A DNA stretch of 64,000 bases from Eledone cirrhosa (lineage: Eukaryota): contig OZ024740.1 of assembly GCA_964016885.1 (NCBI GenBank), positions 376,402,001 to 376,466,000 on the forward strand, in the 5' to 3' direction. Numbering within the stretch: position 1 is the first letter of the stretch; every line of letters begins with the position of its first letter. Position numbers and translations under genes: made by a program. Below, in pieces: positions 49,401 to 55,061 of this stretch. The notes under the pieces were generated by a model. That model ran no database searches. It saw only the letters and a list, made by a program, of their open reading frames with translations, and was not told the DNA's origin.

Positions 49401-52165
49401 CGGTTTTTAGAGTCATACTGGTTTTTGAGGAAACACCTTTCCTCTATTCTCTAGAAAGCCAGACAAGGAATATTGAACTAGTTTCGTTGTTGTTACAACT
49501 CATCAGCAATATTTACCTATCTTCCGGCCTCTCTAGAGAATCGTAAAAGCACATATCGTTATATGCTTTTTGTATGAAAATTAGTAGTGGGCATACTAAT
49601 TTGCATAGAGTGTGAGTAAGTACCGGTTCAACGGAGACGATAAAAACAAATAACGAAACGAAATTAAATTTTGTTTCATTTGTAACTCACTTTTGTATGA
49701 CTGACGCTTAAACAATTAAGTTAAAGATGTACATCCATATATGTATACTGAAATACTAGTATGTATATGAATACACACACGTATACATATGTAGATGTAC
49801 CAAGTTTTTTCACTGGTCACTTTACTGTGAGTGGCCAGCTATTCTGTATATAAACACACAGACAAACCGGTTTTTAGAGTCATACTGGTTTTTGAGGAAA
49901 CACCTTTCCTCTATTCTCTAGAAAGCCAGACAAGGAATATTGAACTAGTTTCGTTGTTGTTACAACTCATCAGCAATATTTACCTATCTTCCGGCCTCTC
50001 TAGAGAATCGTAAAAGCACATATCGTTATATGCTTTTTGTATGAAAATTAGTAGTGGGCATACTAATTTGCATAGAGTGTGAGTAAGTACCGGTTCAACG
50101 GAGACGATAAAAACAAATAACGAAACGAAATTAAATTTTGTTTCATTTGTAACTCACTTTTGTATGACTGACGCTTAAACAATTAAGTTAAAGATGTACA
50201 TCCATATATGTATACTGAAATACTAGTATGTATATGAATACACACACGTATACATATGTAGATGTACCAAGTTTTTTCACTGGTCACTTTACTGTGAGTG
50301 GCCAGCTATTCTGTATATAAACACACAGACAAACCGGTTTTTAGAGTCATACTGGTTTTTGAGGAAACACCTTTCCTCTATTCTCTAGAAAGCCAGACAA
50401 GGAATATTGAACTAGTTTCGTTGTTGTTACAACTCATCAGCAATATTTACCTATCTTCCGGCCTCTCTAGAGAATCGTAAAAGCACATATCGTTATATGC
50501 TTTTTGTATGAAAATTAGTAGTGGGCATACTAATTTGCATAGAGTGTGAGTAAGTACCGGTTCAACGGAGACGATAAAAACAAATAACGAAACGAAATTA
50601 AATTTTGTTTCATTTGTAACTCACTTTTGTATGACTGACGCTTAAACAATTAAGTTAAAGATGTACATCCATATATGTATACTGAAATACTAGTATGTAT
50701 ATGAATACACACACGTATACATATGTAGATGTACCAAGTTTTTTCACTGGTCACTTTACTGTGAGTGGCCAGCTATTCTGTATATAAACACACAGACAAA
50801 CCGGTTTTTAGAGTCATACTGGTTTTTGAGGAAACACCTTTCCTCTATTCTCTAGAAAGCCAGACAAGGAATATTGAACTAGTTTCGTTGTTGTTACAAC
50901 TCATCAGCAATATTTACCTATCTTCCGGCCTCTCTAGAGAATCGTAAAAGCACATATCGTTATATGCTTTTTGTATGAAAATTAGTAGTGGGCATACTAA
51001 TTTGCATAGAGTGTGAGTAAGTACCGGTTCAACGGAGACGATAAAAACAAATAACGAAACGAAATTAAATTTTGTTTCATTTGTAACTCACTTTTGTATG
51101 ACTGACGCTTAAACAATTAAGTTAAAGATGTACATCCATATATGTATACTGAAATACTAGTATGTATATGAATACACACACGTATACATATGTAGATGTA
51201 CCAAGTTTTTTCACTGGTCACTTTACTGTGAGTGGCCAGCTATTCTGTATATAAACACACAGACAAACCGGTTTTTAGAGTCATACTGGTTTTTGAGGAA
51301 ACACCTTTCCTCTATTCTCTAGAAAGCCAGACAAGGAATATTGAACTAGTTTCGTTGTTGTTACAACTCATCAGCAATATTTACCTATCTTCCGGCCTCT
51401 CTAGAGAATCGTAAAAGCACATATCGTTATATGCTTTTTGTATGAAAATTAGTAGTGGGCATACTAATTTGCATAGAGTGTGAGTAAGTACCGGTTCAAC
51501 GGAGACGATAAAAACAAATAACGAAACGAAATTAAATTTTGTTTCATTTGTAACTCACTTTTGTATGACTGACGCTTAAACAATTAAGTTAAAGATGTAC
51601 ATCCATATATGTATACTGAAATACTAGTATGTATATGAATACACACACGTATACATATGTAGATGTACCAAGTTTTTTCACTGGTCACTTTACTGTGAGT
51701 GGCCAGCTATTCTGTATATAAACACACAGACAAACCGGTTTTTAGAGTCATACTGGTTTTTGAGGAAACACCTTTCCTCTATTCTCTAGAAAGCCAGACA
51801 AGGAATATTGAACTAGTTTCGTTGTTGTTACAACTCATCAGCAATATTTACCTATCTTCCGGCCTCTCTAGAGAATCGTAAAAGCACATATCGTTATATG
51901 CTTTTTGTATGAAAATTAGTAGTGGGCATACTAATTTGCATAGAGTGTGAGTAAGTACCGGTTCAACGGAGACGATAAAAACAAATAACGAAACGAAATT
52001 AAATTTTGTTTCATTTGTAACTCACTTTTGTATGACTGACGCTTAAACAATTAAGTTAAAGATGTACATCCATATATGTATACTGAAATACTAGTATGTA
52101 TATGAATACACACACGTATACATATGTAGATGTACCAAGTTTTTTCACTGGTCACTTTACTGTGA
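46444..52165 (-). repeat. Tandem array, about 12.25 x 467 bp, hammerhead-containing units (retrozyme-like), left arm
   Basis: Exact 467-bp period (ORF track repeats at 46562, 47029 ... 51699); only difference noticed is C>T at 46517; hammerhead on the minus strand in every full unit. Confidence 0.97.
46667..46711 (-). ncRNA. Minimal type I hammerhead ribozyme; 12 copies at 46667+467n (last 51804-51848)
   Basis: AATATTG-CTGATGA-GTTG-taacaa-CAAC-GAAA-CTAG-TT-CAATATT: intact core, 7-bp stem I, 4-bp stem II, palindromic ACTAGT stem III. Confidence 0.92.
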
Positions 52166-55061
52166 TGTACATCTTTAACTTAATTGTTTAAGCGTCAGTC
52201 ATACAAAAGTGAGTTACAAATGAAACAAAATTTAATTTCGTTTCGTTATTTGTTTTTATCGTCTCCGTTGAACCGGTACTTACTCACACTCTATGCAAAT
52301 TAGTATGCCCACTACTAATTTTCATACAAAAAGCATATAACGATATGTGCTTTTACGATTCTCTAGAGAGGCCGGAAGATAGGTAAATATTGCTGATGAG
52401 TTGTAACAACAACGAAACTAGTTCAATATTCCTTGTCTGGCTTTCTAGAGAATAGAGGAAAGGTGTTTCCTCAAAAACCAGTATGACTCTAAAAACCGGT
52501 TTGTCTGTGTGTTTATATACAGAATAGCTGGCCACTCACAGTAAAGTGACCAGTGAAAAAACTTGGTACATCTACATATGTATACGTGTGTGTATTCATA
52601 TACATACTAGTATTTCAGTATACATATATGGATGTACATCTTTAACTTAATTGTTTAAGCGTCAGTCATACAAAAGTGAGTTACAAATGAAACAAAATTT
52701 AATTTCGTTTCGTTATTTGTTTTTATCGTCTCCGTTGAACCGGTACTTACTCACACTCTATGCAAATTAGTATGCCCACTACTAATTTTCATACAAAAAG
52801 CATATAACGATATGTGCTTTTACGATTCTCTAGAGAGGCCGGAAGATAGGTAAATATTGCTGATGAGTTGTAACAACAACGAAACTAGTTCAATATTCCT
52901 TGTCTGGCTTTCTAGAGAATAGAGGAAAGGTGTTTCCTCAAAAACCAGTATGACTCTAAAAACCGGTTTGTCTGTGTGTTTATATACAGAATAGCTGGCC
53001 ACTCACAGTAAAGTGACCAGTGAAAAAACTTGGTACATCTACATATGTATACGTGTGTGTATTCATATACATACTAGTATTTCAGTATACATATATGGAT
53101 GTACATCTTTAACTTAATTGTTTAAGCGTCAGTCATACAAAAGTGAGTTACAAATGAAACAAAATTTAATTTCGTTTCGTTATTTGTTTTTATCGTCTCC
53201 GTTGAACCGGTACTTACTCACACTCTATGCAAATTAGTATGCCCACTACTAATTTTCATACAAAAAGCATATAACGATATGTGCTTTTACGATTCTCTAG
53301 AGAGGCCGGAAGATAGGTAAATATTGCTGATGAGTTGTAACAACAACGAAACTAGTTCAATATTCCTTGTCTGGCTTTCTAGAGAATAGAGGAAAGGTGT
53401 TTCCTCAAAAACCAGTATGACTCTAAAAACCGGTTTGTCTGTGTGTTTATATACAGAATAGCTGGCCACTCACAGTAAAGTGACCAGTGAAAAAACTTGG
53501 TACATCTACATATGTATACGTGTGTGTATTCATATACATACTAGTATTTCAGTATACATATATGGATGTACATCTTTAACTTAATTGTTTAAGCGTCAGT
53601 CATACAAAAGTGAGTTACAAATGAAACAAAATTTAATTTCGTTTCGTTATTTGTTTTTATCGTCTCCGTTGAACCGGTACTTACTCACACTCTATGCAAA
53701 TTAGTATGCCCACTACTAATTTTCATACAAAAAGCATATAACGATATGTGCTTTTACGATTCTCTAGAGAGGCCGGAAGATAGGTAAATATTGCTGATGA
53801 GTTGTAACAACAACGAAACTAGTTCAATATTCCTTGTCTGGCTTTCTAGAGAATAGAGGAAAGGTGTTTCCTCAAAAACCAGTATGACTCTAAAAACCGG
53901 TTTGTCTGTGTGTTTATATACAGAATAGCTGGCCACTCACAGTAAAGTGACCAGTGAAAAAACTTGGTACATCTACATATGTATACGTGTGTGTATTCAT
54001 ATACATACTAGTATTTCAGTATACATATATGGATGTACATCTTTAACTTAATTGTTTAAGCGTCAGTCATACAAAAGTGAGTTACAAATGAAACAAAATT
54101 TAATTTCGTTTCGTTATTTGTTTTTATCGTCTCCGTTGAACCGGTACTTACTCACACTCTATGCAAATTAGTATGCCCACTACTAATTTTCATACAAAAA
54201 GCATATAACGATATGTGCTTTTACGATTCTCTAGAGAGGCCGGAAGATAGGTAAATATTGCTGATGAGTTGTAACAACAACGAAACTAGTTCAATATTCC
54301 TTGTCTGGCTTTCTAGAGAATAGAGGAAAGGTGTTTCCTCAAAAACCAGTATGACTCTAAAAACCGGTTTGTCTGTGTGTTTATATACAGAATAGCTGGC
54401 CACTCACAGTAAAGTGACCAGTGAAAAAACTTGGTACATCTACATATGTATACGTGTGTGTATTCATATACATACTAGTATTTCAGTATACATATATGGA
54501 TGTACATCTTTAACTTAATTGTTTAAGCGTCAGTCATACAAAAGTGAGTTACAAATGAAACAAAATTTAATTTCGTTTCGTTATTTGTTTTTATCGTCTC
54601 CGTTGAACCGGTACTTACTCACACTCTATGCAAATTAGTATGCCCACTACTAATTTTCATACAAAAAGCATATAACGATATGTGCTTTTACGATTCTCTA
54701 GAGAGGCCGGAAGATAGGTAAATATTGCTGATGAGTTGTAACAACAACGAAACTAGTTCAATATTCCTTGTCTGGCTTTCTAGAGAATAGAGGAAAGGTG
54801 TTTCCTCAAAAACCAGTATGACTCTAAAAACCGGTTTGTCTGTGTGTTTATATACAGAATAGCTGGCCACTCACAGTAAAGTGACCAGTGAAAAAACTTG
54901 GTACATCTACATATGTATACGTGTGTGTATTCATATACATACTAGTATTTCAGTATACATATATGGATGTACATCTTTAACTTAATTGTTTAAGCGTCAG
55001 TCATACAAAAGTGAGTTACAAATGAAACAAAATTTAATTTCGTTTCGTTATTTGTTTTTAT
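52164..55061 (+). repeat. Tandem array, about 6.2 x 467 bp, inverted right arm of the same unit
   Basis: Reverse complement of the left-arm unit; junction ...TACTGT-GA-TGTACATC with 2-nt microhomology; ends in (TA)n. Confidence 0.97.
52386..52430 (+). ncRNA. Minimal type I hammerhead ribozyme; 6 copies at 52386+467n (last 54721-54765)
   Basis: Same motif on the plus strand; predicted cleavage after GUU, between 52423 and 52424. Confidence 0.92.

Follow-up and report, generated by a model that had tools for sequence, protein, structure and literature searches.

The array at 46443-55061 of the window (the whole stretch of 64,000 nt of Eledone cirrhosa DNA analyzed here) is a recent, single insertion of a retrozyme, a non-coding repeat with many copies in this genome; its layout is the rule in the repeat family rather than an artifact. 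It was likely written by a Penelope-type reverse transcriptase (RT)-endonuclease, with the two ends of a DNA break priming synthesis on a single RNA that was probably circular.

Structure of the Array

The features of the array and of the Penelope-like elements (PLEs) in the window are as follows.

46406..46443, no strand: left (TA)n target tract, overlapping the array by 1 nt
46443..52165, minus strand: arm 1, 12.3 retrozyme units of 467 nt with 12 hammerheads, defined by unit match
52164..52165, no strand: inversion junction, a 2-nt GA microhomology belonging to both arms
52164..55061, plus strand: arm 2, 6.2 units with 6 hammerheads, defined by unit match with zero mismatches
52386..52430, plus strand: first type I hammerhead of the plus arm, predicted cut after 52423, from structure and paired changes
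54987..55061, plus strand: "tail", the stretch bounded by start sites A and B (unit positions 229-303)
55059..55179, no strand: right (TA)n target tract, common to the array and the adjacent PLE, overlapping the array by 3 nt
55181..57257, plus strand: 5'-truncated young PLE with RT and GIY-YIG matches, ORF at 55310-56596
9672..13550, minus strand: older broken PLE of a different family from the young PLE, GIY-YIG match below the Pfam cut-off

The divergent arms, the GA junction and the (TA)n flanks had been recognized in a preliminary description, and alignment of the unit reproduced them exactly. Unit positions are counted from the base 3' of the predicted hammerhead cut (position 1). In ribozyme sense, both arms are directed outward from the junction. 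Arm 1 has its inner end at unit position 113 (52165) and its outer, 3' end at positions 230-231 (46443), which is site A. Arm 2 has its inner end at position 208 (52164) and its outer, 3' end at position 303 (55061), which is site B. The spacer between the mirrored arms is 95 nt. The tail closes arm 2 and is missing from the end of arm 1, and two predicted hairpins adjoin sites A and B. The copies are near-identical, as had been noticed: one mismatch was found in 8,584 aligned letters, the substitution at 46517 in arm 1.

The Retrozyme Unit

The 467-nt repeat is tandem, low in GC (159/467) and dispersed in high copy number, with a type I hammerhead in each unit, and no ORF of at least 100 aa was found inside the array. 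By these sequence features, it is a non-LTR retrozyme. The hammerhead has stem I of 7 bp, stem II of 5 bp and a short, palindromic stem III; its core is intact and identical in 18/18 window units. As the array hammerhead had no Rfam match at the gathering score, the motif was assigned through structure and paired changes. In older copies, both strands of stem II have changed, and a sister family of 62% identity has different stems I and II that still pair. The ribozyme core has 5,142 exact matches in the genome, compared with 0 for the reversed control. Self-cleavage of the transcript is predicted from the motif, and the short palindromic stem III suggests that the hammerhead probably needs two copies, as described for such stems in PMC4209133. 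The circular fold of the unit is predicted at -138.7 kcal/mol, whereas 60 shuffled sequences give -88.3 +/- 5.2 kcal/mol. None of the sequencing runs listed for the unit is recorded as RNA, a result that carries no information on expression.

Outer Ends Are Fixed at Two Sites

The outer ends had been described as lying at different phases of the unit, with the implication that these were free. The family survey overturned this point. Among 100 outer ends from loci selected independently of their ends, 48 are at positions 228-235 (site A) and 47 at positions 301-304 (site B); 95 thus fall at two sites ~70 nt apart. The proposed survey of endpoints at other loci therefore gave a divided answer, with outer ends fixed and inner ends variable. 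Fixed outer ends do not refute twin priming; they indicate that priming is ordered and uses two start sites built into the unit. The observation that the ends avoid the cleavage site holds family-wide, with an outer end at the cut site in one locus only. Targeting of (TA)n is also supported by genome-wide forward-strand counts of an end followed by (TA)n (758 for site A and 993 for site B).

The two sites are paired. The pairing test covered 42 two-arm loci, leaving aside the 20 loci of set 3, which had been selected because they looked like pairs, and L122, a duplicate of L121; five loci were excluded because an end was cut off or interrupted. One A end and one B end were observed in 36/37 classifiable loci (p = 3e-10), and in 45/46 when loci chosen by one end are added. 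Priming from both sides of the break, as first suggested, is thus supported in an ordered form with one built-in start site per arm. Six further loci have a second arm of only 10-17 nt, always with the opposite site. Two arms are present in 17/27 position-ordered loci, and tiny arms in another 3. Loci of 120 bp and diverged loci show the same layout. L034, the only retrozyme locus with A/A ends, is flanked by mirror-like sequence. A B/B pair at L091 in the position lists turned out to be two insertions. In sequencing run X1, 11 contigs pass from the unit into (TA)n at site B; at three positions, the letters in this run differ from the window subfamily in nearly all copies.

Variants across Laps and Arms

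The suggestion of a single event on one template sequence is supported by variants specific to the locus. The majority sequence is identical in both arms in 21/44 loci, compared with 39/1,892 cross-locus pairs, and the median difference between loci is 2%. There are zero mismatches in L059 (7,723 letters), L072 (9,151), L037 (6,654) and L054 (5,890); assembly polishing could contribute in part to this identity of laps. Among rare variants carried by every lap of both arms, 16 are A>G and 2 are T>C (p = 6e-4, an overstated value because L126 contributes 7/16 variants and has sites in common with L072 and L052); these come from 6 and 2 loci, respectively. Lap-specific variants show 13 A>G versus 11 T>C. 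The common locus-own variants of the arms, together with the A>G bias in every lap, indicate one edited RNA monomer that was reread, probably as a circle. An edit could, however, have been fixed already in a parent locus.

Only 6/115 lap-specific variant types were found in both arms, three of them in L041, which has mosaic laps, as does L034. In L087, one variant is present in laps 1, 2, 4, 5, 7 and 8 of a single arm, a period-3 pattern, and part of the array length may stem from such later changes at the DNA level. A 497-nt self-closing contig in run X4 is equally compatible with circle and tandem DNA and was dropped as evidence.

Junctions, Inner Ends and Arm Lengths

Joining through microhomology, as proposed, is supported by the junctions: overlaps of at least 2 nt occur in 30/47 (7 short-spacer junctions excluded), compared with 19% for random joins. 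Spacers are distributed uniformly (KS p = 0.68). The longer arm ends at A in 29/64 loci and at B in 35/64. Arm lengths show a weak correlation when all 64 loci are included (rho = 0.36), and the correlation without the best-match set is 0.22, not significant. Outside that set, arms are mostly short, with a median below 500 nt. Arms cross up to 13 predicted cut sites. Inner ends lie immediately next to the cut site or 3' of it somewhat more often than expected (21/126, expected 11.6, p = 0.006), so some templates may be linear; those exactly at the cut site are not enriched (4, expected 2.7). Arms begin at positions 1-4 or 464-465 in L092, L103, L104, L115 and L116.

Comparison with Penelope-like Elements and Other Systems

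Both PLEs in the window share the geometry of the array, as had been pointed out, with offset ends and one site per arm in each. In the young PLE, the inverted arm (55181-55335, 156 nt) is 99.4% identical to the sense arm, and the outer ends match 57217 and 57257, which gives a 40-nt offset, or tail. In the older PLE, the inverted arm is 1.1 kb and 91% identical, with outer ends ~150 nt apart. The one-site-per-arm rule was observed in 7/8 two-ended loci of the young PLE family, and in the window copy and 4/4 loci of the older family. The retrozyme unit had no sequence match to these two families, and its partner PLE was not found in them; the partner comparison covered these two families, and first-look PLE candidates in the genome numbered 25,199 and 65,186. 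PLE pieces adjoining retrozyme loci were considered as the partner, and appear to be separate insertions. The retrozyme itself is not an autonomous PLE; there is no ORF in the unit, and RT and GIY-YIG matches are in its neighbors only.

Endonuclease-bearing PLEs are similar to the array in the inverted 5'-truncated arm, the often one-ended tail, two start sites flanking the tail and AT-rich or (TA)n targets (PMC8557442; PMC11167929; PMC3846280), and in a hammerhead with palindromic stem III (PMC4209133). The two-site tail is a known PLE feature (PMC11167929), here on a retrozyme. The retrozyme differs from PLEs in the lack of an ORF, in a tail of ~70 nt instead of 30-40, and in many laps per arm. 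The PLE tail is described as optional or often one-sided, with endonuclease resolution or self-priming as the cause (PMC8557442; PMC11167929; PMC3846280). In the descriptions of PLEs drawn on here from these three papers, one site per arm is not given as a strict rule.

Like metazoan non-LTR retrozymes, the family has a low-GC non-coding unit of a few hundred bases with one type I hammerhead, thousands of copies and a strongly folded predicted circle. PLEs have been proposed as the mobilizer of these retrozymes (PMC7229834; bioRxiv 10.64898/2026.07.22.740005). Their re-entry into DNA is a proposal there, and the link to PLEs comes from co-occurrence and sequence likeness. Cervera and de la Pena (2020; PMC7229834) proposed tandem cDNA from a primed circle, with the life cycle in their Figure S9, and Li, Clavereau and Pollet (2026; bioRxiv 10.64898/2026.07.22.740005) attributed arrays to local amplification after insertion. 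Inverted arms, fixed ends and a tail, as seen in the family studied here, are not described in the main texts of these two papers. A literature search of openly available main texts found no paper on inverted two-arm retrozyme insertions.

The array also resembles LINE-1 insertions made by twin or dual priming, in which two primers from the sides of the break give divergent arms and the internal junction forms via microhomology or end joining (PMC2837659). In LINE-1, however, the position at which the second primer anneals inside the RNA varies, and each arm copies a different part of it, with a deletion between them (PMC2837659). In the retrozyme, poly(A) is absent, both sites are fixed and the arms overlap for many laps, which does not fit LINE-1-type twin priming.

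Proposed Mechanism

The proposed cycle would start with tandem transcripts, which paired hammerheads would cut into monomers for ligation into circles. A dimer of a PLE protein would bind one RNA and nick both strands of (TA)n. Synthesis of cDNA would begin at sites A and B, one site per arm; each enzyme would lap the RNA circle a variable number of times, and the two cDNA ends would be linked by host end joining. In its favor, a PLE protein studied in vitro, which is predicted to form a dimer, cleaves AT-rich DNA on both strands and extends them, using two internal start sites that flank the tail (PMC11167929). Two results of the same work count against the mechanism: ribozyme cleavage was dispensable in vitro, and the strands did not differ in start site (PMC11167929).

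The wider reading, towards which the data incline slightly, is that Penelope-type enzymes have obligate asymmetric double priming. The dimer would hold a single RNA and allot one of the two start sites to either side of the break. With a retrozyme circle as template, bidirectional rolling-circle reverse transcription would write an 8.6-kb satellite-like array in one step.

Alternative Origins

It is unlikely that the template for two-site PLE priming was instead a long linear RNA, transcribed in tandem from a source array that was already homogeneous and left uncleaved. In vitro, unprocessed RNA serves as the main substrate (PMC11167929), possible source arrays of 10-13 identical units exist, and the weak arm-length correlation points the same way. 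Against it, a linear multimer predicts lap-specific edits mirrored between arms, which were seen for the 6/115 types only, and the A>G bias resides instead in all-lap variants. Daughters would also be no longer than the parent arm, so that long arrays would shrink without a multiplying step.

Repeated template jumps, in which the enzyme reaches the 5' end of a cut linear monomer and resumes at the 3' end of another monomer or of that same one, are quite improbable. The slight surplus of inner ends close to the cut site, the few arms beginning at positions 1-4 or 464-465, and the mosaic laps of L034 and L041 are in its favor, but laps are uniform over cut sites (0-1 mismatch per array) despite the 2% median difference between loci. 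Jumps back onto the same molecule give the same data as a circle, and the two cannot be told apart. A circular template is the best-fitting inference.

Later lengthening of a short twin-primed insertion through unequal exchange or slippage is very unlikely. It would explain the period-3 pattern in L087 and the prevalence of short loci outside the best-match set. The longest arrays, however, are almost invariant internally, and length does not increase with divergence from the window unit, which is a poor proxy of age (rho = -0.10, n = 41).

An inversion by fold-back, either as a chimeric-read artifact or as self-priming of cDNA or antisense template (suggested for PLEs in PMC3846280), is extremely unlikely: fold-backs are present in the assembly (PLE locus L190, a 3.2-kb palindrome of 99.75% with flank included and B/B ends, and the mirror-like flanks of L034), and no listed contig crosses 52164 in four runs (one without reads, and the copy-rich run with letters other than those of this subfamily and thus uninformative on the junction), but a fold-back would duplicate end and flank, whereas the window array has differing ends and a left flank beyond (TA)n that is no mirror of the right flank, a script found mirrored flanks in only 3/66 two-arm loci, spacers are uniform rather than short, and either arm may be the longer.

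Implications

Retrozyme insertions bear the mechanical footprint of PLEs itself, at well over 1,000 places. From the one-site-per-arm rule follows a sharp prediction that the in vitro system already available for PLEs could address, and the rule speaks against an origin of PLE inversions by self-priming. Writing of RNA into a full-length satellite-like array is a route for array birth. If true, asymmetric double priming would unify inverted arms, the one-sided tail and tandem structure in PLEs and retrozymes.

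Two-Arm Retrozyme Array

Tandem Repeats Finder detected two arrays of a 467-bp unit, a hammerhead-bearing retrozyme repeat, with (TA)n tracts on either side of the pair:

46443-52165, minus strand, array 1 (minus arm), 12.3 copies
52164-55061, plus strand, array 2 (plus arm), 6.2 copies

Every unit contains one type I hammerhead, in which stem I has 7 bp, stem II has 5 bp, and stem III is short and palindromic. With unit positions numbered from the predicted cut, the inner end of the minus arm lies at 113 and its outer (3') end at 231; those of the plus arm lie at 208 and 303. 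GA at 52164-52165 is compatible with either arm, and 46517 is the sole mismatch within the two arms. All features of the array in the preliminary description (two arrays, (TA)n flanks, GA junction, and the single mismatch) were borne out. At unit position 93, a letter rare elsewhere is present in 18/18 window copies.

Exact matches to the ribozyme core number 5,142 in the 3.0-Gb genome. The fetched loci comprise 29 from the best 150 of 326 matches (set 1), 27 taken sequentially by position on contig C1 (set 2), 20 chosen as apparent end pairs (set 3), and 20 chosen by one end (set 4). The divergent two-arm layout is seen in 24 of the 29 best-match loci and 17 of the 27 position-ordered loci. 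No convergent pair joined directly was found among the fetched loci. Copies with only 87% identity to the window unit also show the layout, as does the miniature locus L090, whose arms measure 65 and 58 nt. L121 and L122, 18 kb apart on contig C1, are one insertion present twice by local duplication.

Outer Ends and Their Pairing

Sets 1 and 2 and the window together supply 100 outer ends. Site A, at unit positions 228-235 and divided into sub-sites near 229 and 234, accounts for 48 of them; BLAST alignments may overrun these ends into TA by a few bases. Site B, at 301-304, accounts for 47. Of the remaining five, two were truncated by the limits of the fetched stretch, and the other three are either interrupted or unexplained. 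The outer ends are fixed at these two sites. The preliminary description had proposed a survey of other copies for permuted endpoints; the inner ends are indeed variable, but 95/100 outer ends fall at A or B. Genome-wide, an end followed by (TA)n was counted 758 times for site A and 993 times for site B on the forward strand; reverse-strand counts are inflated by several matches per site. The predicted cut site followed by (TA)n was found at one locus only.

Of 37 classifiable two-arm loci, 36 pair an A end with a B end, whichever comes first (p = 3e-10; 5 of 42 were dropped); with the one-end set included, the count is 45 of 46. The one locus that departs from this is L034, whose flanks are mirror-like and whose laps (passes round the unit) are mosaic. 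Six seemingly single-armed loci have a second arm of 10-17 nt with the other site in each. Other single-armed copies pass from a variable inner position directly into (TA)n. The flanks of three A/B loci (L033, L072, and L092) are partly mirrored at an offset; these loci may have inserted into an older element that was itself two-armed.

Penelope-like Elements

The window contains two Penelope-like elements (PLEs):

55181-57257, plus strand, PLE of a young family
9672-13550, minus strand, older PLE

Protein identity in the young family is 97-99% among 98 scored copies. Its ends correspond to window position 57217 or 57255-57257, with one of each kind in 7 of 8 loci where both are visible (15 of 20 longer stretches showed one end only). 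The remaining one, L190, forms a palindrome around the PLE in which the flank is mirrored too (L190:1532-8101; 3.2 kb, 99.75%). It is a true fold-back, real or assembly-made. The older PLE has two ends ~150 nt apart, and 4/4 two-ended relatives agree.

Inverted arms and two end sites are common to the retrozyme and the PLEs. There is no sequence match between the retrozyme unit and the two window PLE families, so these PLEs show a common mechanism, not the partner. A minimal hammerhead-like motif is seen in the young PLE at ~57030-57070 (+), and the two end sites follow ~150 and 190 nt further on. In the PLE copies L139, L153, and L154, the 3' end continues beyond the tail into 5' sequence of the same element, the outcome expected of a circular or tandem template.

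Probable Single Template, Many Laps

At least two predicted cut sites are crossed by 57 of 133 arms, with a maximum of 13. Among 44 loci with both arms of at least 300 nt, the majority sequence is identical in both arms in 21; among cross-locus pairs it is identical in 39 of 1,892. The median difference is 0.21% within loci and 2.0% between loci.

A-to-I RNA editing would leave an A>G excess on the sense strand. Rare variants found in every lap of both arms (n=32) include, in ribozyme sense, 16 A>G and 2 T>C, from 6 and 2 mutually non-independent loci, while lap-specific variants include 13 and 11 (three noisy loci excluded). The all-lap excess may be a trace of A-to-I edited RNA, and the edit may date from the parent locus rather than the inserting RNA. 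An excess in every lap implies that all laps were multiplied from a single edited monomer, and a circle would achieve this directly. A linear multimer as template, which tandem transcripts could supply, is unlikely. Template jumps between cut monomers are quite improbable.

In the left arm of L087+L088, a variant at unit position 111 occurs in laps 1, 2, 4, 5, 7, and 8, in one arm only, a period-3 pattern. In L087 and L041, the lap patterns suggest a later change in the DNA itself or a misassembly. As the origin of the arrays, later expansion of a shorter insertion has a slighter chance still.

Inner Ends and Junctions

The 63 resolved junctions give 126 inner ends. They are scattered across the unit but mildly enriched between 13 nt upstream and 30 nt downstream of the cut (21/126 versus 11.6 expected); within 5 nt of it there is no enrichment (4 versus 2.7). 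Overlaps of at least 2 nt are found in 30 of 47 clean joins versus 19% by chance, a figure that BLAST ends may inflate, and inserted bases at 16/63 junctions. These data are consistent with two cDNAs whose ends arose independently and were then linked by end joining. Fold-back or artefact is the least credible origin, because spacers between the mirrored arms are spread evenly from 0 to 233 nt in length and the longer arm can be either one.

Other Features of the Window

5330-5757, plus strand, sister retrozyme unit, 62% identity to the 467-nt unit
23366-23448, minus strand, HDV-like ribozyme (Rfam CPEB3, 55.6 bits)
13660-13704, minus strand, hammerhead-like core outside the array
59329-59375, plus strand, hammerhead-like core outside the array
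59771-61210, plus strand, stop-to-stop frame of 479 aa
2466-2655, 5119-5309, 5864-6056, 7398-7584, 25752-26135, and 35585-35770, SINE-like dispersed repeat, ~190 bp, 81-91% identity

The sister unit has a damaged hammerhead at 5517 and runs into (TA)n at its homologue of site A. The ATGCAAAT motif at unit positions 337-344 (e.g., 52760-52767), inside a predicted hairpin, is kept in the sister family; we take it to be a candidate octamer element of snRNA promoters. The HDV-like ribozyme, directly upstream of LINE endonuclease and RT fragments (21025-23053), is likely the 5' ribozyme of that LINE. Pairing of the two hammerhead-like cores was not confirmed in a stricter scan, and the 479-aa frame has no Pfam match at E 0.01.

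Proposed Insertion Mechanism

Retrozymes and their circles have been described, with a PLE route proposed for them (PMC7229834; bioRxiv 10.64898/2026.07.22.740005), copying of a PLE circle beyond unit length was suggested (PMC4209133), PLE inverted arms with a tail frequently at a single end are known (PMC8557442; PMC3846280), and the PLE tail was linked in vitro to two RT start sites (PMC11167929). In the texts and literature searches covered, we found no description of a two-arm PLE footprint on retrozymes or of a strict one-site-per-arm rule, and no sequence evidence for a single template behind both arms.

We consider the following route probable. Paired hammerheads would cut tandem transcripts, and the products would be circularised. 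One RNA would be bound by a PLE RT-endonuclease dimer, which would nick both (TA)n strands and start one cDNA at each of the two sites, A and B. Synthesis would roll round the RNA circle, and the two cDNAs would finally be joined. Two-site PLE priming is the firm part of this route and very likely correct; the circular template is the softer part. The array was probably inserted by two-sided rolling-circle reverse transcription. It is a real feature and a clean example: by every feature testable in sequence, a retrozyme with the insertion mechanics of a PLE.
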